Assembly: GCF_988243305.1 (NCBI RefSeq)
Contig: NZ_OZ547136.1
Length of the DNA stretch: 64,000 nt
Strand: one strand, 5' to 3'
Position 1 is the first letter of the stretch. Every line of letters starts with the position of its first letter. A program made the translations under genes and the position numbers. This document shows positions 6,634-15,968 of the stretch, piece after piece. Below the pieces are notes generated by a model that was not told where the DNA came from, did not search any database, and worked only from the letters and a program-made list of their open reading frames with translations.

Positions 6634-6753
6634 CAGAACCATCGCCTCTCTGTGGTCCCGGTCATCATGATCGGGACCCGGACCGGCGCAACGGATATTC
6701 AACGCCACATTCGCTGGCATTAACAATAACATGATATTCATCACGGAGTGACT

Positions 6754-9270
6754 ATGTTACAGATAGTCGGCGCGCTGATCCTGCTGATCGCAGGATTTGC
6801 CATTCTTCGCCTTTTGTTCAGAGCATTAATCAGCACGGCTTCTGCGCTGGCAGGGCTCATATTGCTGTGTCTGTTCGGCCCGGCCTTACTGGCTGGCTAT
6901 ATCACCGAACGCATAACCCGGTTGTTCCATATTCGCTGGCTGGCAGGCGTATTTCTGACGATTGCCGGAATGATCATCAGCTTCATGTGGGGACTTGATG
7001 GTAAACATATCGCGCTGGAGGCTCACACCTTTGACTCTGTGAAATTTATTCTGACCACCGCTCTCGCCGGTGGTCTGCTGGCTGTTCCCCTGCAGATCAA
7101 AAACATTCAGCAGAACGGGATCACACCAGAAGATATCAGCAAGGAAATTAACGGGTATTACTGCTGTTTTTATACTGCCTTTTTCCTTATGGCGTGTTCT
7201 GCATGCGCACCATTGATCGCGTTACAGTACGATATTTCACCGTCACTGATGTGGTGGGGCGGGTTGTTGTACTGGCTGGCTGCATTAGTGACGCTGCTAT
7301 GGGCGGCCAGCCAAATCCAGGCGCTGAAAAAACTGACCTGTGCCATCAGCCAGACACTGGAAGAACAACCGGTGCTCAACAGTAAATCGTGGCTGACCAG
7401 TTTGCAAAACGATTACAGCCTTCCTGACTCACTGACGGAGCGCATCTGGCTGACGCTCATTTCTCAACGGATTTCCCGGGGAGAGCTGAGGGAATTTGAA
7501 CTGGCAGACGGAAACTGGTTACTGAACAATGCCTGGTATGAAAGAAACATGGCAGGGTTTAACGAACAGTTGAAAGAGAACCTGTCATTCACACCTGATG
7601 AACTGAAAACGCTCTTCCGGAACCGCCTGAATTTATCACCGGAAGCGAATGACGATTTTCTCGATCGTTGCCTGGACGGCGGTGACTGGTATCCCTTTTC
7701 AGAAGGTCGCCGTTTTGTATCATTCCATCACGTGGATGAGCTTCGTATCTGTGCCTCCTGCGGGCTGACAGAAGTACATCATGCCCCGGAAAATCATAAG
7801 CCGGATCCGGAATGGTACTGCTCCTCTCTTTGTCGCGAAACAGAAACACTGTGTCAGGAAATTTATGAACGCCCTTACAACAGCTTTATTTCCGATGCAA
7901 CGGCGAATGGTCTGATTCTCATGAAACTGCCGGAAACCTGGAGTACAAATGAGAAAATGTTTGCTTCCGGAGGGCAGGGACATGGGTTTGCCGCTGAACG
8001 GGGAAACCATATTGTCGACAGAGTCCGTCTGAAAAACGCACGGATCCTCGGTGATAATAATGCCAGAAATGGAGCAGACAGACTGGTCAGCGGAACAGAA
8101 ATCCAGACGAAATATTGTTCAACTGCAGCCCGTAGCGTCGGTGCGGCATTCGACGGACAAAACGGACAGTATCGTTACATGGGAAATAATGGCCCCATGC
8201 AACTGGAAGTCCCCCGTGATCAGTATGCCGGCGCTGTTGAAACCATGAGGAATAAGATCCGCGAAGGTAAAGTACCCGGTGTAACCGATCCCGCAGAAGC
8301 ATCCCGGCTGATTCGTCGGGGACATCTGACTTATACTCAGGCCCGTAATATCACCCGGTTCGGGACCATCGAATCGGTCACTTATGATATTGCCGAGGGT
8401 TCGGTTGTCAGTCTGGCGGCCGGAGGGATCAGTTTTGCCCTGACGGCATCGGTCTTCTGGCTCAGCACCGGCGATCGCGATGCTGCCCTGCAGACAGCTG
8501 CTGTCCAGGCAGGAAAAACCTTCACCCGCACACTGGCTGTCTACGTCACAACCCAGCAACTCCACCGGCTCAGTGTTGTTCAGGGTATGCTGAAGCACAT
8601 TGATTTTTCGACTGCCAGCCCGACTGTTCGACTGGCTCTTCAGAAGGGGACCGGTGCAGGAAATATCAGTGCCCTGAACAAAGTGATGAAGGGTACGCTG
8701 GTGACATCTCTGGCACTGGTAGCTGTCACAACCGGCCCTGACATGATCAAAATGTTGCGGGGACGGATCTCCGGTACGCAGTTCATCAGGAATCTTGCCG
8801 TGGCATCTTCCGGTGTGGCAGGTGGTGCTGTCGGGTCAGTGGCGGGCGGAATACTGTTCAGTCCACTGGGACCATTTGGTGCACTGACAGGGCGTGTGGT
8901 TGGCGGTGTTCTGGGGGGAATGATTGCCTCCGCTGTATCAGGAAAAATTGCCGGAGCGCTGGTTGAAGAAGATCGCGTCAAAATTCTGGCAATGATTCAG
9001 GAGCAGGTGACATGGCTTGCCGGCAGTTTCCTGCTGACCGGACATGAGATTGAAAATCTGAACGAGAATCTGGCCCGTGTTATCGATCAGAATGCTCTGG
9101 AGATCATTTTCGCCGCCGGTATACAACAACGGGCCGCGACCAATATGTTAATCAAACCACTGGTGGTCAGTATCATCAGGCAACGCCCCGTCATGGAATA
9201 TGATGCATCCCATCTCGGCAATATGGTTAACCGACTGGAAGAAGCATTACCCCCGGAGTTACCGGCATAA
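6754..9270 (+). CDS. yeeR: YeeR-like inner membrane protein (enlarged, about 838 aa)
   Basis: ORF 6748..9270; several hydrophobic N-terminal helices and a glycine-rich hydrophobic C-terminal block; sits directly after flu as yeeR does in CP4-44; ATG at 6754 preferred over GTG 6748 (ggag 5 nt upstream). Confidence 0.55.
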   Translation: MLQIVGALILLIAGFAILRLLFRALISTASALAGLILLCLFGPALLAGYITERITRLFHIRWLAGVFLTIAGMIISFMWGLDGKHIALEAHTFDSVKFILTTALAGGLLAVPLQIKNIQQNGITPEDISKEINGYYCCFYTAFFLMACSACAPLIALQYDISPSLMWWGGLLYWLAALVTLLWAASQIQALKKLTCAISQTLEEQPVLNSKSWLTSLQNDYSLPDSLTERIWLTLISQRISRGELREFELADGNWLLNNAWYERNMAGFNEQLKENLSFTPDELKTLFRNRLNLSPEANDDFLDRCLDGGDWYPFSEGRRFVSFHHVDELRICASCGLTEVHHAPENHKPDPEWYCSSLCRETETLCQEIYERPYNSFISDATANGLILMKLPETWSTNEKMFASGGQGHGFAAERGNHIVDRVRLKNARILGDNNARNGADRLVSGTEIQTKYCSTAARSVGAAFDGQNGQYRYMGNNGPMQLEVPRDQYAGAVETMRNKIREGKVPGVTDPAEASRLIRRGHLTYTQARNITRFGTIESVTYDIAEGSVVSLAAGGISFALTASVFWLSTGDRDAALQTAAVQAGKTFTRTLAVYVTTQQLHRLSVVQGMLKHIDFSTASPTVRLALQKGTGAGNISALNKVMKGTLVTSLALVAVTTGPDMIKMLRGRISGTQFIRNLAVASSGVAGGAVGSVAGGILFSPLGPFGALTGRVVGGVLGGMIASAVSGKIAGALVEEDRVKILAMIQEQVTWLAGSFLLTGHEIENLNENLARVIDQNALEIIFAAGIQQRAATNMLIKPLVVSIIRQRPVMEYDASHLGNMVNRLEEALPPELPA

Positions 9271-9345
9271 CGGCTATTCTGCGCCTTTTACGCTTTATCA
9301 CCTGATTTGTCAGTGTCATCGTCATGACTCAGAGAGGTAAATACC

Positions 9346-9801
9346 ATGATTCACCTGTTCAAAACCTGCATGATTACCGCCTTCATTCTGGGGTTAACGT
9401 GGTCTGCCCCACTCCGGGCACAGGATCAACGTTACATCAGTATACGCAATACAGATACGATATGGCTCCCGGGAAATATTTGTGCTTACCAGTTCCGGCT
9501 GGATAATGGCGGAAACGATGAAGGATTTGGCCCCCTCACCATCACTCTGCAACTCAAAGACAAATATGGTCAGACGCTGGTGACCAGAAAAATGGAAACG
9601 GAAGCTTTTGGTGACAGTAATGCCACGCGAACCACAGACGCATTTCTGGAAACGGAGTGCGTGGAAAATGTCGCCACAACCGAAATCATCAAAGCAACTG
9701 AAGAAAGTAACGGCCATCGTGTCAGTCTGCCGTTATCGGTTTTCAATCCCCAGGACTACCATCCACTGCTGATTACCGTTTCCGGAAAAAACGTTAACTG
9801 A
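9346..9801 (+). CDS. hypothetical secreted protein (signal peptide)
   Basis: ORF with N-terminal signal-like sequence MIHLFKTCMITAFILGLTWSAPLRA; gagagg RBS 8 nt upstream. Confidence 0.5.
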   Translation: MIHLFKTCMITAFILGLTWSAPLRAQDQRYISIRNTDTIWLPGNICAYQFRLDNGGNDEGFGPLTITLQLKDKYGQTLVTRKMETEAFGDSNATRTTDAFLETECVENVATTEIIKATEESNGHRVSLPLSVFNPQDYHPLLITVSGKNVN

Positions 9802-9879
9802 TCCCTGAAGTCAGTTTCATGCTTCAGCCTCTGTCACAACGCGTGGCAGAGGCTTTTTATTTATCAGGAGAAAACAGAT

Positions 9880-10113
9880 ATGCCGGGTTACACAGAGTAT
9901 GTCCTGGCTGAAGGATCTTTCTCATACGGGCAGGCGGTTGCTGTCATAACCGCTTACCGCAATGTGTTTATCCAGGATGACCCGGGAATGCATTTCCGTC
10001 GGGTTATCCGCAACGCGGAAGGTCAGCGACGCTGGCGCTGCCGGAATTCTGAACCCGATGCCGGAAAGGTGCTTAATACGCGGCTCGCCAGTGACGGTCT
10101 TCTCAGACAATAA
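9880..10113 (+). CDS. small island protein (DUF905/YkfF-like by position)
   Basis: 77-aa ORF with aggag RBS; occupies the slot of the small DUF905 gene preceding DUF932 in CP4-type modules; family assignment from memory only. Confidence 0.4.
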
Positions 10114-10212
10114 ACGTCATTCATTTCACCCATCAGGCCGCGTCTTCTCCGGGAGACGTGGCTTTTTCATTTATTACACCAGTAAATCTTAACCACCGAT
10201 AAGGAGCAAATT

Positions 10213-11031
10213 ATGCGACTAGCCAGTCGTTTTGGTTATGCGAACCAGATACGCCGTGACCGTCCGCTGACACACGAAGAACTGATGCACTATGTGCCGG
10301 GGATTTTCGGGGAAGATAAACACACGTCCCGAAGCCAGAACTATACGTACATCCCCACCATCACCGTACTGGAAAGCCTGCAGCGGGAAGGCTTTCAGCC
10401 ATTCTTCGCCTGCCAGACCCGTGTGCGCGACCCGGGCCGCCGGGGATACACAAAACACATGCTGCGTCTGCGGCGGGCCGGAGAGATAAACGGAGAACAT
10501 GTCCCTGAAATTATTCTGCTCAACTCTCATGACGGTACCTCCAGCTACCAGATGCTGCCGGGTTACTTCAGGTTCGTCTGCCAGAACGGATGCGTCTGTG
10601 GTCAGTCTCTGGGGGAAGTGCGTGTTCCGCACCGGGGAAATGTGGTGGACAGAGTCATTGAAGGGGCTTACGAGGTGGTGGGCGTGTTTGACCGGATTGA
10701 GGAAAAGCGTGATGCCATGCAGTCGCTGATTCTGCCGCCACCGGCACGCCAGGCGCTGGCACAGGCGGCACTGACTTACCGTTATGGTGACGAACATCAG
10801 CCCGTCACCACCGCCGACATTCTGACGCCACGACGCCGGGAGGATTACGGTAAGGACCTGTGGAGTGCTTATCAGACCATTCAGGAGAATATGCTGAAAG
10901 GCGGAATTTCAGGTCGCAGCGCTAAAGGAAAACGTATCCATACCCGTGCCATTCACAGCATTGACACTGACATTAAGCTCAACCGCGCATTGTGGGTGAT
11001 GGCGGAAACCCTGCTGGAGAGCCTGCGCTGA
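10213..11031 (+). CDS. DUF932 family protein (YfjQ/YafZ-like)
   Basis: 272-aa ORF with aaggag RBS; length and position match the YfjQ/YafZ family of CP4 prophage-like islands. Confidence 0.6.
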   Translation: MRLASRFGYANQIRRDRPLTHEELMHYVPGIFGEDKHTSRSQNYTYIPTITVLESLQREGFQPFFACQTRVRDPGRRGYTKHMLRLRRAGEINGEHVPEIILLNSHDGTSSYQMLPGYFRFVCQNGCVCGQSLGEVRVPHRGNVVDRVIEGAYEVVGVFDRIEEKRDAMQSLILPPPARQALAQAALTYRYGDEHQPVTTADILTPRRREDYGKDLWSAYQTIQENMLKGGISGRSAKGKRIHTRAIHSIDTDIKLNRALWVMAETLLESLR

Positions 11032-11085
11032 TTCAGCCATTACCCTGAAAACCACGCATTTATTTGTCCTTTAAGGAGTCATTTC

Positions 11086-11571
11086 ATGAAAACCATTTCA
11101 CATAATTCCACCACATCTTCTGTTTCCGTAACCGCTGCATCAGGGAATGACCAGCCTCAGTTGGTTGCCACCCTCGTCCCTGATGAACAGCGCATCAGCT
11201 TCTGGCCGCAGCACTTTGGCCTCATTCCACAGTGGGTGACCCTGGAGCCCCGTGTCTTCGGCTGGATGGACCGTCTGTGTGAAGACTACTGCGGTGGTAT
11301 CTGGAATCTGTACACCCTGAACAACGGCGGGGCATTTATGGCACCCGAACCGGATGACGATGATGACGAAACATGGGTACTGTTCAATGCCATGAACGGT
11401 AACCGCGCTGAAATGAGTCCGGAAGCTGCCGGCATTGCTGCCTGTCTGATGACGTACAGTCATCATGCCTGTCGTACGGAGTGTTATGCCATGACGGTCC
11501 ATTATTACCGGCTGCGGGATTACGCCCTGCAGCATCCGGAATGCAGCGCCATTATGCGCATCATCGACTGA
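11086..11571 (+). CDS. antirestriction protein (ArdB/KlcA-like, YfjX/YafX family)
   Basis: 161-aa ORF, aaggag RBS, acidic DDDDDE stretch; conserved position upstream of the radC-like gene. Confidence 0.6.
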   Translation: MKTISHNSTTSSVSVTAASGNDQPQLVATLVPDEQRISFWPQHFGLIPQWVTLEPRVFGWMDRLCEDYCGGIWNLYTLNNGGAFMAPEPDDDDDETWVLFNAMNGNRAEMSPEAAGIAACLMTYSHHACRTECYAMTVHYYRLRDYALQHPECSAIMRIID

Positions 11572-11586
11572 ATGGAGAGAAGTACA

Positions 11587-12063
11587 ATGCAACAGCTTTC
11601 CTTTCTGCCCGGAGAGATGACGCCCGGCGAGCGCAGCCTCATTCAACGGGCCCTGAAAACCCTGGACCGCCATCTTCATGAACCCGGCGTGGCCTTCACC
11701 TCCACCCGTGCGGCACGAGAATGGCTGATTCTGAACATGGCGGGACTGGAGCGTGAAGAGTTCCGGGTGCTGTATCTGAACAACCAGAATCAGCTGATTG
11801 CCGGTGAAACCCTCTTCACCGGCACCATCAACCGCACGGAAGTCCATCCCCGTGAAGTGATTAAACGCGCCCTGTATCACAATGCCGCTGCTGTGGTGCT
11901 GGCACACAATCACCCGTCCGGTGAAGTCACACCCAGCAAGGCAGACCGCCTTATCACGGAACGTCTGGTACAGGCACTGGGCCTGGTGGATATCCGGGTG
12001 CCGGACCATCTGATAGTCGGTGGCAGCCAGGTTTTCTCCTTTGCCGAACATGGTCTGCTTTAA
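11587..12063 (+). CDS. yeeS: RadC-like JAB-domain protein
   Basis: JAMM-like motif HNHPSGEVTPSKADRLIT; K-12 YeeS-like N-terminus MQQLSFLPGEMTPGERS at ATG 11587 (ORF-track start 11572). Confidence 0.75.
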   Translation: MQQLSFLPGEMTPGERSLIQRALKTLDRHLHEPGVAFTSTRAAREWLILNMAGLEREEFRVLYLNNQNQLIAGETLFTGTINRTEVHPREVIKRALYHNAAAVVLAHNHPSGEVTPSKADRLITERLVQALGLVDIRVPDHLIVGGSQVFSFAEHGLL

Positions 12064-12125
12064 CCCGTCACAACCACATCACACCTGTTTTCACTTTTAT
12101 CTTCTGTCTTCAGAGGTATCCCACT

Positions 12126-12347
12126 ATGAAAATCATCACCCGTGGCGAAGCCATGCGTATTCACCGTCAGCATCCGGCATCCCGTCTTTTTCCGTTCTGT
12201 ACCGGCAAATACCGCTGGCACGGCAGTGCTGAAGCGTATACCGGTCGTGAAGTGCAGGATATTCCCGGTGTGCTGGCCGTATTTGCAGAACGCCGTAAGG
12301 ACAGTTTTGGTCCGTATGTCCGGCTGATGAGCGTCACCCTGAACTGA
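12126..12347 (+). CDS. yeeT: DUF987 small protein
   Basis: 73-aa ORF MKIITRGEAMRIHRQHPASRLFPFCTGKYRWHG, in the conserved position upstream of cbeA. Confidence 0.6.
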   Translation: MKIITRGEAMRIHRQHPASRLFPFCTGKYRWHGSAEAYTGREVQDIPGVLAVFAERRKDSFGPYVRLMSVTLN

Positions 12348-12509
12348 TGTTCCGTCACCCGGAAAACGAGTACGACTGGCTGAGCTCAGACGCCGCTGTG
12401 GATGAGGTCCTGCTCATCAACGAATACACCTTTACCGAAGCCGGTCTGCGCGCCGGCTGACCCGTCATCGTTAAACTATCATTCACCGATTTTCTGTGAG
12501 GATTTTATC

Positions 12510-12878
12510 GTGTCAGACACACTTTCCGGGACAACGCATCCCGATGACAATGACGACCATCCCTGGTGGGGACTACCCTGCACAGTGACGCCCTGTTTCG
12601 GCGCCCGTCTGGTGCAGGAGGGTAACCGCCTGCATTACCTTGCCGACCGCGCCGGTATCAGAGGCCTGTTCAGCGATGCAGATGCGTACCACCTGGACCA
12701 GGCCTTTCCGCTGCTGATGAAACAACTGGAACTCATGCTCACCAGCGGTGAACTGAATCCCCGCCATCAGCATACCGTCACGCTGTATGCAAAAGGTCTG
12801 ACCTGCAAAGCTGACACTCTCGGTAGCGGTGGTTACGTTTATCTGGCTGTTTATCCGACGCCCGAAACGAAAAAGTAA
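12510..12878 (+). CDS. cbeA: CbeA antitoxin (YeeU family, type IV TA)
   Basis: In-frame GTG at 12510 gives a 122-aa product [38 protein letters not shown]...; the ORF-track start at 12402 is probably an upstream extension. Confidence 0.8.
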
Positions 12879-12967
12879 ACCACCGGAATAACCTTCTGCT
12901 CCGGCCTGGTGCTTTCACCACGCCACTTTTCCATTTTTCATCTCTGCATATCAGGAAAACCTTCAGT

Positions 12968-13342
12968 ATGAAAACATTACCCGATACACACGTACGGGAG
13001 GCATCGAGCTGCCCGTCTCCCGTCACCATCTGGCAGACTCTGCTCTCCCGACTACTGGGCCAGCATTACGGCCTTACACTGAATGACACACCGTTCGCCG
13101 ATGAACGTGTGATTGAGCAGCATATTGAAGCTGGCATTTCACTGTGTGATGCGGTGAATTTTCTCGTGGAAAAATACGCGCTGGTGCGTACCGACCAGCC
13201 GGGATTCAGCACTTGTCCCCGCTCTCAGTTAATAAACAGTATTGATATCCTCCGGGCTCGCAGGGCGACCGGCCTGATGACCCGCGACAATTACAGAACG
13301 GTAAATAACATTACCCTGGGTAAGCATCCGGAGAAACGATGA
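12968..13342 (+). CDS. cbtA: CbtA toxin (YeeV family; cytoskeleton-targeting)
   Basis: 124-aa ORF immediately downstream of cbe[71 protein letters not shown]. Confidence 0.8.
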
Positions 13343-13827
13343 AACTTTCCCTGATGCTGGAAGCCGACAGAATTAATGTGCAGGCACTGAACATGGGGCG
13401 AATTGTCGTTGACGTCGATGGTGTTAATCTCACTGAACTGATTAACAAGGTCGCTGAAAACGGTTATTCACTCCGCGTGGTGGAGGAATCCGACCAACAG
13501 TCAACCTGCACACTACCACCGTTTGCAACCCTTGCCGGCATACGCTGCAGTACCGCACATATCACGGAAAAGGATAACGCCTGGCTGTACTCGCTGTCGC
13601 ATCAGACCAGTGACGTTGGTGAATCAGAATGGATTCATTTCACAGGTAGCGGATATCTGTTACGTACCGATGCGTGGTCATATCCGGTTCTGCGGCTTAA
13701 ACGCCTGGGGCTGTCAAAAACGTTCCGTCGTCTGGTTATCACACTTACCCGACGTTATGGCGTCAGTCTCATTCATCTGGATGCCAGCGCTGAATGCCTG
13801 CCGGGTTTACCCACTTTCAACTGGTAA
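13339..13827 (+). CDS. yeeW: YeeW-like protein
   Basis: 162-aa ORF overlapping the cbtA stop by 4 bp (ATGA), the position yeeW holds in CP4-44. Confidence 0.5.
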
Positions 13828-13838
13828 CCAGGAACAAC

Positions 13839-14036
13839 ATGAAATCATTAACCACGGAAACCGCACTGGATATTCTGATTGCGTGGCTGCAGGACAATAT
13901 CGACTGCGAATCGGGAATTATCTTTGACAACAATGAGGATAAAACGGATTCAGCAGCACTGTTGCCCTGTATCGAACAGGCCAGAGAGGATATCCGTACC
14001 CTGCGCCAACTGCAGCTTCAGCACCAGAACCGGTGA
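13839..14036 (+). CDS. small hypothetical protein (65 aa)
   Basis: ATG at 13839 preceded by aggaa; followed by a clear terminator. Confidence 0.35.
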   Translation: MKSLTTETALDILIAWLQDNIDCESGIIFDNNEDKTDSAALLPCIEQAREDIRTLRQLQLQHQNR

Positions 14037-14066
14037 GTCTTACTCACCAGACTTCATTCCACTGAC

Positions 14067-14097
14067 GCCAGCCTGAACAGGGCTGGCATTTTCATTT
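14067..14097 (+). terminator. rho-independent terminator
   Basis: Stem gccagcc (14067-14073) / ggctggc (14081-14087), loop tgaacag, then attttcattt. Confidence 0.6.
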
Positions 14098-14753
14098 ATC
14101 TGCAAAAAGGAATATCGATTATGTCTGATATCACAGCCTACCGTCCGGAAGTGGTCAACGAGAATACGGACGTTATCTGCTCAACCAGCATCCGCCGCAT
14201 TCTGGCTGTACGAAAGAGTTCACTGCTGCAAATCGACACAATTATCCGGCATCAAGTGAGCGATATCAGTTAACAGATATAGATGGAGAAGATGCTTTTA
14301 TCCGGATTGGTTCTATCGCGATGGTGCGAGTACTACTTGATGCAATGAAGCCTGTCGAGGAAGATGACGAGTAACAGAGCTCGGTATCTCAATCAGGAGC
14401 TGATTGTCCTGGTTCGATGCCGAAAACCAGTGATTTTTCGTGTTGGTATCTGTGTTGGTATAAGATGATATTGTTTATTATTAACAATTTTAAATCATGA
14501 GGTTAAGTCACATGTTTGAGTCCGGCCTTCGCACCTTCGCACCTTCGCACCATCGGAACATCAATAGACATCAACGGACGTTTTTTTATGACTGAAATCC
14601 GCGCCACACAAGGCTTTTCGCTATTTTTCGCTCAACCTAAGTCAACCTACATCAACTTACTGATGTGGATACAGCTACAGCTGCGGCTATACCCCGATTC
14701 GATAATGTTTGTACCCACACAAAACCCTTGAAAGGCTACAAGGCTGAAATTGT

Positions 14754-15238
14754 CTAAACCATAGAGATGATTTTTATGATCCAGTCTTTCTCTTGTTGAG
14801 ATAGTTCCAGTTTGCTCACTCGTGTTAAGAAGGTATTGATCACCTGAACATCCGAATTGGTGAGCCTATTTAATAGAGCGGGTGGTATACCTTTACTAAC
14901 AATCGCTTTGCGGTGACTTTCGTAGTTTTTATTACTCATTGTTGATCCTAAAAAATCATTGTATGGCGGCATTGATCGTTTCCAGCAACCTTTACTTACT
15001 CACTTCGAACTGCATCCTCGTAGACTGTTCCACTACAATAATCGAAAAGGCGCGGATGTCCATTCAGGTATCCCGCTAATACGTATAGCAATAACAATGG
15101 CTTATGCGGCGCGCGCTGTTCACCCTTGTGCCAGATTTTTATATTGGCAATTGCCTGCTGTAGCGATTTACTGGAAGCTATTGATATCCCTGGCAGTGAA
15201 ATAATTGCGATCATGCTCGCAAATTTTCTGCTGTTCAA
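14754..15238 (-). pseudogene. possible disrupted gene (two adjacent short ORFs, 80 aa and 72 aa)
   Basis: ORFs 14996..15238 and 14754..14972 on the same strand in different frames separated by 23 bp; divergent from the HNH gene; no recognisable family. Confidence 0.25.
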
Positions 15239-15317: not shown

Positions 15318-15968
15318 ATGAATAAACTCCCTGATCATCTTCCGCGGCGGTATATCATCGAAGCTATCCATTTATGGGATGCGGGAGAAACTCATCAGTT
15401 CCAGCCTGCGCGGTTGTATGAGATTGAATATCATGGCCGACGTTACCCCTCGAAGGCGATTGCTGGCATCGCAGCGACATTGATGACGGGGACGCAATTT
15501 ACCCCTGCGGATTTCACCGGCGGAATAAAATCTAAATGTGTCAAGCTACTCATAGAGCAGGGATTTCATATTCATCTGGATAAAGCCGCTGCGGCTCCCA
15601 TAGCCGACGTTCTGTTCCCGGATGAGTTGCCGTCGCAGGAGACATACCTTGAAGGTGCGGCGATAAAGGTGACAGTAAACCGCTATGAACGCGATAAAAA
15701 GGCCCGAGATAAAGCGGTCGAACATCATGGATGCCAGTGCAACGTATGCGGTGTTGATCTGGTGAAGATCTATGGTGATATCGCTGAAGGCTTTATCCAT
15801 GTGCATCACCTGGTGCCGCTGTCAGCCATTAAAGAGGATTACCAGCTGGATCCAGTTAATGATTTGCTGCCTGTGTACCCTAATTGCCATGCGATGTTGC
15901 ACCGACGCAAACCACCGTTTACGCCGGAGCAGTTAAAAGCGCTGATGGATGCGAATAAATCAAATTAA
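15318..15968 (+). CDS. HNH endonuclease family protein
   Basis: 216-aa ORF; C-terminal HNH signature CQCNVCG ... HVHHLVPLS ... NCHAMLH (two Cys pairs flanking His/Asn catalytic positions); N-terminal about 120 aa of unknown function. Confidence 0.7.
   Translation: MNKLPDHLPRRYIIEAIHLWDAGETHQFQPARLYEIEYHGRRYPSKAIAGIAATLMTGTQFTPADFTGGIKSKCVKLLIEQGFHIHLDKAAAAPIADVLFPDELPSQETYLEGAAIKVTVNRYERDKKARDKAVEHHGCQCNVCGVDLVKIYGDIAEGFIHVHHLVPLSAIKEDYQLDPVNDLLPVYPNCHAMLHRRKPPFTPEQLKALMDANKSN

Follow-up and report, generated by a model that had tools for sequence, protein, structure and literature searches.

Do the two adjacent genes at positions 12510 to 13342 of the window (the whole stretch of 64,000 nucleotides analysed here) form an intact toxin-antitoxin pair of the CbeA-CbtA type, where does the antitoxin gene begin, and how far can the behaviour of the K-12 homologues be expected of them? 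CbtA/CbeA, the founding member of the type IV toxin-antitoxin systems, is present in ~91% of complete E. coli genomes, where the median copy number is three. The window itself is part of an E. coli chromosome; over 24 kb, it is 99.5% identical to several strains. The features to which we refer are collected in Table 1.

Table 1 Positions of the cbeA-cbtA pair and of neighbouring features in the window
Feature	Position	Strand	Remarks
Hypothetical membrane-associated protein gene	6748-9270	+	840 aa
Terminator-like hairpin	10135-10164		before the eight-gene string
Remnant ORF MFRHPENEYDWLSSDAAVDEVLLINEYTFTEAGLRAG	12347..12460	+	37 codons; in the DUF987-cbeA gap; own ATG overlaps the DUF987 stop
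Shine-Dalgarno-like GAGGA	12495..12499	+	ends 10 nt upstream of the cbeA GTG; read from the sequence
cbeA/yeeU-family type IV antitoxin gene	12510..12878	+	122 aa; GTG start, stop TAA; Pfam PF06154
cbeA-cbtA spacer	12879..12967	+	89 nt; 93% identical to the 88-nt K-12 spacer
Spacer hairpin GGCcUGGUG-CUUU-CACCAcGCC	about 12903-12924	+	U-rich run to 12940; shared with K-12
cbtA/yeeV-family toxin gene	12968..13342	+	124 aa; ATG start, stop TGA; Pfam PF06755
DUF5983 (YeeW-like) gene	13339..13827	+	162 aa, full length; Pfam PF25638 plus PF19419
DUF957 small gene (PGAP name)	13839-14036	+	longer ORF from 13794, 80 aa
Terminator-like hairpin	14067-14087		after the eight-gene string
DUF4942 N-terminal pseudogene piece	14121-14270		transferred from GE3 and O26 annotations
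HTH regulator pseudogene piece	14246-14374		transferred from GE3 and O26 annotations
Phosphorothioated-DNA restriction endonuclease pseudogene piece	15032-15181	-	transferred from GE3 and O26 annotations
HNH endonuclease gene	15318-15968		intact; after the distal pseudogene run

Identity and extent of the pair

Both genes are covered end to end by their family domains. The toxin matches CbtA_toxin (PF06755) over profile positions 1-112 of 112 (E 9.6e-62, 206.4 bits, curated cut-off 25), and the antitoxin matches CbeA_antitoxin (PF06154) over positions 1-100 of 101 (E 4.7e-53, 178.4 bits, curated cut-off 27). Their nearest K-12 relatives are CbeA and CbtA themselves: the antitoxin protein is 93% identical to CbeA, 65% to YfjZ and 62% to YafW, and the toxin 88% identical to CbtA, 63% to YpjF and 59% to YkfI. 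The CbeA-CbtA identity proposed in the original prediction is thus borne out. Residues 18-104 of the antitoxin are those of K-12 CbeA without a single difference, the toxin aligns with K-12 CbtA without a gap, and alignment with the YeeU/YeeV, YfjZ/YpjF and YafW/YkfI pairs found the conserved core undamaged. Internal stops are absent from both reading frames, in keeping with the predicted full length and lack of frameshifts, and the unbroken 124-aa toxin frame can be set beside a canonical family length of about 109-124 aa. As in seven loci from four other genera, cbeA sits immediately 5' of a CbtA-family gene on the same strand.

The same two genes, with the same coordinates, are annotated by PGAP in E. 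coli O26:H11 11368 and in strain GE3: the antitoxin gene, of 369 nt, as "YeeU family antitoxin" (WP_001315620.1), and the toxin gene, of 375 nt and thus of the predicted length, as "CbtA family toxin" (WP_000854753.1). Window DNA from 12300 to 13500 is 100% identical to that locus and represents the same allele. The 840-aa gene further upstream is broken by IS600 in O26:H11 11368, whereas it is intact in the window; the pair itself shows no difference. The pair is therefore already known, its family being characterised and its exact allele present in RefSeq. Neither CbeA nor CbtA was matched by any NCBIfam model, so the names that PGAP gives to the pair rest on no model of the current NCBIfam release.

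The start of cbeA required closer attention. The list of open reading frames gives a frame of 158 aa counted from its first ATG (12402..12878, plus strand, with no internal stops), whereas translation from the GTG at 12510 yields a product of 122 aa that begins MSDTLSGTT. The PF06154 match spans residues 18-117 of the shorter form and residues 54-153 of the longer one; its position merely shifts, so the 36 extra N-terminal codons contribute nothing to it. K-12 cbeA starts at the homologous GTG, and about 23 nt upstream of this codon are shared with K-12, the Shine-Dalgarno sequence included (GAGGA here, AAGGA in K-12). The block TTTTCTGT(G/A)AGGATTTTATCGTG before cbeA is kept in K-12, and the sequence further upstream is unrelated. 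The solved YeeU structure (PDB 2H28) aligns over residues 1-121 with residues 1-121 of the antitoxin (E 3.7e-76); its chain sequence opens with MSDTL, and its residue 1 pairs with residue 1 of the 122-aa form. Since the K-12 GTG, the N-terminus of 2H28 and the PGAP coordinates agree, the correction of the start to the GTG, and with it the predicted length of 122 aa, is right. The ATG at 12402 was ruled out as a start: the codons it would add are not covered by the Pfam match, K-12 does not share the region, and the frame it opens is an alternative one through a gene remnant. The warning that the listed frame over-extends cbeA was well founded.

The remnant lies in the gap between the DUF987 gene and cbeA, which measures 162 nt here as against an unrelated 73 nt in K-12. 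Its last 32 residues resemble the C-terminus of a 213-aa gene (47% identity, E 2e-6) that is unannotated and lies between DUF987 and cbeA in an Enterobacter bugandensis locus (L010:1899-2540). Because the remnant matches the end of a larger gene, we interpret the "intergenic" gap as the scar of an internal deletion, and the extension to the ATG at 12402 is explained as another frame running through the remnant. The check thus gives the correct cbeA start codon and accounts for the misleading longer frame. The fold of the gap was no better than those of shuffled sequences (z -0.59).

With the CP4-44 pair of K-12 the locus shares its gene order, the lengths of both proteins, the GTG start, the ribosome-binding site, the length of the spacer, the overlap (ATGA) of the toxin stop with the start of the next gene (yeeW/DUF5983), and RadC and DUF987 genes upstream. 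It differs from that pair in toxin residues 6-11 (DTHVRE in the window, VLPGQA in K-12), in C15 for R15 and in T20, T24 and G31, in the longer, remnant-bearing upstream gap, in the length of DUF5983, and in its location, as the island lies beside the nan and fim loci and not at the CP4-44 site. The YfjZ/YpjF (CP4-57) and YafW/YkfI (CP4-6) pairs have the two Pfam families, the gene order and the upstream antirestriction-RadC-DUF987 string in common with the window, and their toxins likewise carry C15 and F65 (PMC5624674). However, they are only 62-65% (antitoxin) and 59-63% (toxin) identical to the window pair, their proteins are shorter (antitoxins of 105 aa, toxins of 109-113 aa; PMC5371832), their spacer is 20 nt long, and the DUF5983 gene is absent downstream of them in K-12.

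Taken at the level of sequence, the locus very probably represents a functional-looking CbeA/CbtA (YeeU/YeeV) type IV module at the distal end of an Ag43-type (CP4-like) island, with the E. coli nan and fim loci next to it.

The N-terminal segment of the toxin and residue 15

Relative to the K-12 pair, both genes are under purifying selection, with a pairwise dN/dS of 0.15 for cbeA and of 0.30 for cbtA as a whole. The differences between the toxin and K-12 CbtA are concentrated at the N-terminus: 10 of 15 fall within the first 31 residues, and residues 32-119 differ at positions 82 and 84 only. Correspondingly, dN/dS is 0.53 over codons 1-31 and 0.14 over codons 32-124, and dS is 0.60 over codons 1-31 against 0.22 in the rest of the gene. 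This suggests that the N-terminal segment (12968-13060) had a mosaic or recombinant origin, or that it has been under relaxed or diversifying selection. The diverged segment is also the one that contains the K-12 MreB determinant.

The determinant of FtsZ binding lies outside this segment. Substitution of F65 (F65S) removes FtsZ binding in CbtA, YpjF and YkfI (PMC5624674); F65 is present in the window toxin and invariant in all 119 of the aligned relatives. At positions 14-15, on the other hand, the window toxin reads S14-C15 and K-12 CbtA S14-R15, and the R15C substitution in K-12 CbtA abolishes the two-hybrid interaction with MreB and leads to filaments instead of lemon-shaped cells (PMC5624674). 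The allele could accordingly be a natural separation-of-function toxin: with arginine at neither position, it would bind MreB poorly or not at all and act on FtsZ only, producing filaments. Such a reading draws on the presence of the R15C state in a protein 88% identical to CbtA, on the clustering of differences and the raised dN/dS in the N-terminal segment, and on the dipeptides found at these positions in 79 N-terminally intact cluster representatives of the toxin family. Most C15 alleles of the subgroup have an arginine at position 14 (RC, 33 of 79), and the SC of the window is a minority type (5 of 79); the K-12 type, SR, accounts for 21, and the remainder comprises CC (5), GC (5), HC (4) and others (6).

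The same counts, however, also weigh against a loss of MreB targeting. C15 is the majority state at position 15 (56 representatives, against 21 with R15), which makes R15 the derived state, peculiar to the K-12 type. No N-terminal position varies more than position 14 (R, S, C, G, H, P, A), and this freedom speaks against an obligatory arginine there. Moreover, YpjF and YkfI, in which C15 is natural, block elongation all the same; YpjF also binds MreB, and C15R is without effect in either toxin (PMC5624674). Going by this distribution, C15 is a natural polymorphism in the CbtA family and not damage, and we consider it rather unlikely that the window allele acts on FtsZ only. Conserved residues do not guarantee a target either, since the CbtA of Erwinia amylovora keeps both R15 and F65 and yet interacted with neither FtsZ nor MreB in yeast two-hybrid assays (PMC6521040); its expression leads to cell elongation and not to lemon-shaped cells (PMC6521040). 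As a natural S14-C15 allele on an otherwise CbtA-like core, accompanied by an intact DUF5983 gene, the locus can be used to test the specificity of MreB targeting.

The AlphaFold model of the toxin is of moderate quality (pLDDT 65.6) and all-helical, with helices at residues 18-34, 46-55, 59-73, 91-100 and 106-116. A Foldseek comparison of the model with the PDB returned no structural neighbour (best E 4.2), and the toxin sequence found no significant solved relative there (best E 0.21).

The coupled DUF5983 gene and the surrounding island

Directly downstream, the ATG of the DUF5983 gene overlaps the cbtA stop by 4 nt (ATGA, 13339-13342), and this overlap is kept in K-12, Cronobacter, Enterobacter and Klebsiella loci (four genera). 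Judging from this arrangement, DUF5983 is probably co-translated with the toxin. That it is a constant neighbour of cbtA and cbeA has been noted independently in a 2026 preprint (10.64898/2026.06.09.728211). In K-12, yeeW is cut to 64 aa, compared with 162 aa for DUF5983 here. As the K-12 pairs work without DUF5983, we do not count it in the toxin-antitoxin mechanism; on the other hand, because of the same truncation, experiments in K-12 would have missed a role of DUF5983, if real. In a broader reading, the pair would be the front half of a co-translated cbeA-cbtA-DUF5983(-DUF957) module in which DUF5983 modulates the level or activation of the toxin and, separately, S14-C15 would mark a natural FtsZ-only variant of CbtA. 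We regard this combination as unlikely. Nevertheless, the coupling between toxin and DUF5983 is the most interesting loose end of the locus, and the intact coupled gene found here can be used to ask whether this conserved gene takes part in the system. An AlphaFold2 model of DUF5983 was unusable (pLDDT 36.6 on an alignment of 20 sequences); the available homologues are all 85-99% identical.

The pair belongs to a same-strand string of eight genes (10213-14036) that are separated by short gaps or overlap: DUF932, antirestriction, RadC/JAB, DUF987, CbeA, CbtA, DUF5983 and DUF957. Cronobacter, Enterobacter and Klebsiella loci carry the same string, and Citrobacter has it in a partly decayed form. 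The last member of the string is known by its PGAP name, and a current Pfam-A search of the 80-aa frame was without a match; the preprint mentioned above argues that an AntiFam "spurious" family next to DUF5983 (ANF00264) is a real protein. Ahead of the string come, in this order, a YfjI-family protein, a GTPase, Ag43, the 840-aa hypothetical protein, IrmA and DUF905. Beyond it lie remains of pseudogenes (DUF4942, HTH, restriction endonuclease) and an HNH endonuclease, followed by the nan and fim loci. The distal run of pseudogenes spans 14121-15181; the toxin-antitoxin string is intact, and its neighbours just 3' of it are decayed. The window contains no tRNA attachment site, and the integration end of the island lies outside it. 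In an annotation of anti-phage defence with PADLOC, neither the pair nor any of its seven neighbours in the operon was matched; the 840-aa protein showed weak matches (E 5e-6) to PDC-M09B, one of the candidate defence families of PADLOC.

Between the two genes, an AGGA motif precedes the cbtA ATG by 11 nt, in a spacer whose K-12 counterpart has its length reported in PMC5371832 as well. The hairpin in this spacer, followed by its U-rich run, resembles a weak intrinsic terminator or attenuator. The fold of the whole spacer has an energy of -17 kcal/mol with a z-score of only -1.76, and no such hairpin occurs in the spacers of other genera, which measure 50-60 nt, or between yfjZ and ypjF, where the spacer has 20 nt; because of this z-score and the confinement of the hairpin to the E. 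coli YeeU/YeeV subgroup, we do not claim it as either. A search of Rfam over 9000-15000 returned nothing credible, the sole match being to an IRES model (15.6 bits against a gathering score of 191). As for regulation in K-12, neither toxin nor antitoxin autoregulates its operon (PMC5371832).

Given the decay around it, the pair might be an intact-looking but silent passenger of the island, without meaningful expression or current function. The pseudogene fragments strewn over the distal end and the deletion remnant directly upstream of cbeA are compatible with this, as is a scan of the plus strand over 9000-15000 for the sigma-70 consensus, which found no promoter-like site; the scan, however, is a crude consensus match that would miss weak or non-sigma-70 promoters. 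Against such a passenger stand the purifying selection on both genes (dN/dS of 0.15 for cbeA and 0.14-0.30 for cbtA), the retention of both reading frames with their ribosome-binding contexts, the 100% identical sequence in many lineages, and the preservation of synteny and ATGA coupling across genera. We find it decidedly unlikely that the pair is silent.

Mode of action by homology

By homology to the K-12 systems, the pair is a type IV module, in which the antitoxin would protect the targets of the toxin rather than bind the toxin. K-12 CbtA blocks division and elongation independently, by contacting FtsZ at its H6/H7 loop and MreB at its flat face (PMC5624674), and the action on FtsZ and MreB that the original prediction attributed to CbtA toxins agrees with the published work (PMC5624674, PMC5371832). 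By analogy, the 124-aa toxin would bind the H6/H7 loop of FtsZ with F65 as a determinant, and assembly of the Z-ring would be blocked. MreB is probably a second target: binding of the toxin to its flat double-protofilament face would block elongation. For the antitoxin, both papers relay that CbeA binds and bundles FtsZ and MreB and makes no contact with CbtA, which is given as the defining feature of type IV systems (PMC5624674, PMC5371832). Since its core is identical to that of CbeA, the same behaviour is expected of the window antitoxin: without contacting the toxin, it would bind FtsZ and MreB and promote their bundling, rendering the targets resistant. The most likely role of such a module would be stabilisation of the island or a growth arrest linked to stress.

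A type II-like neutralisation by direct binding of antitoxin to toxin, for which one may note that the type IV model comes mainly from one in-vitro study cited in both papers, is extremely improbable in view of the lack of a CbeA-CbtA interaction and the bundling of FtsZ and MreB by CbeA as recounted in PMC5624674, the rescue by CbeA of cells from unrelated FtsZ inhibitors reported in the same account, and the ability of each K-12 antitoxin to neutralise all three toxins despite toxin identities of only 59-63% (PMC5371832).

All three K-12 toxins are toxic, and each is neutralised by every one of the three antitoxins (PMC5371832). Because of this cross-neutralisation within the family and the identical core, the window pair should buffer other genomic copies and be buffered by them. 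A tblastn search of the window found the pair there in a single copy, with no second one. Of 5426 complete E. coli genomes, 4937 contained matching DNA, with a median of 3 places in each and up to 15, as the predicted occurrence of several paralogous copies had led one to expect.
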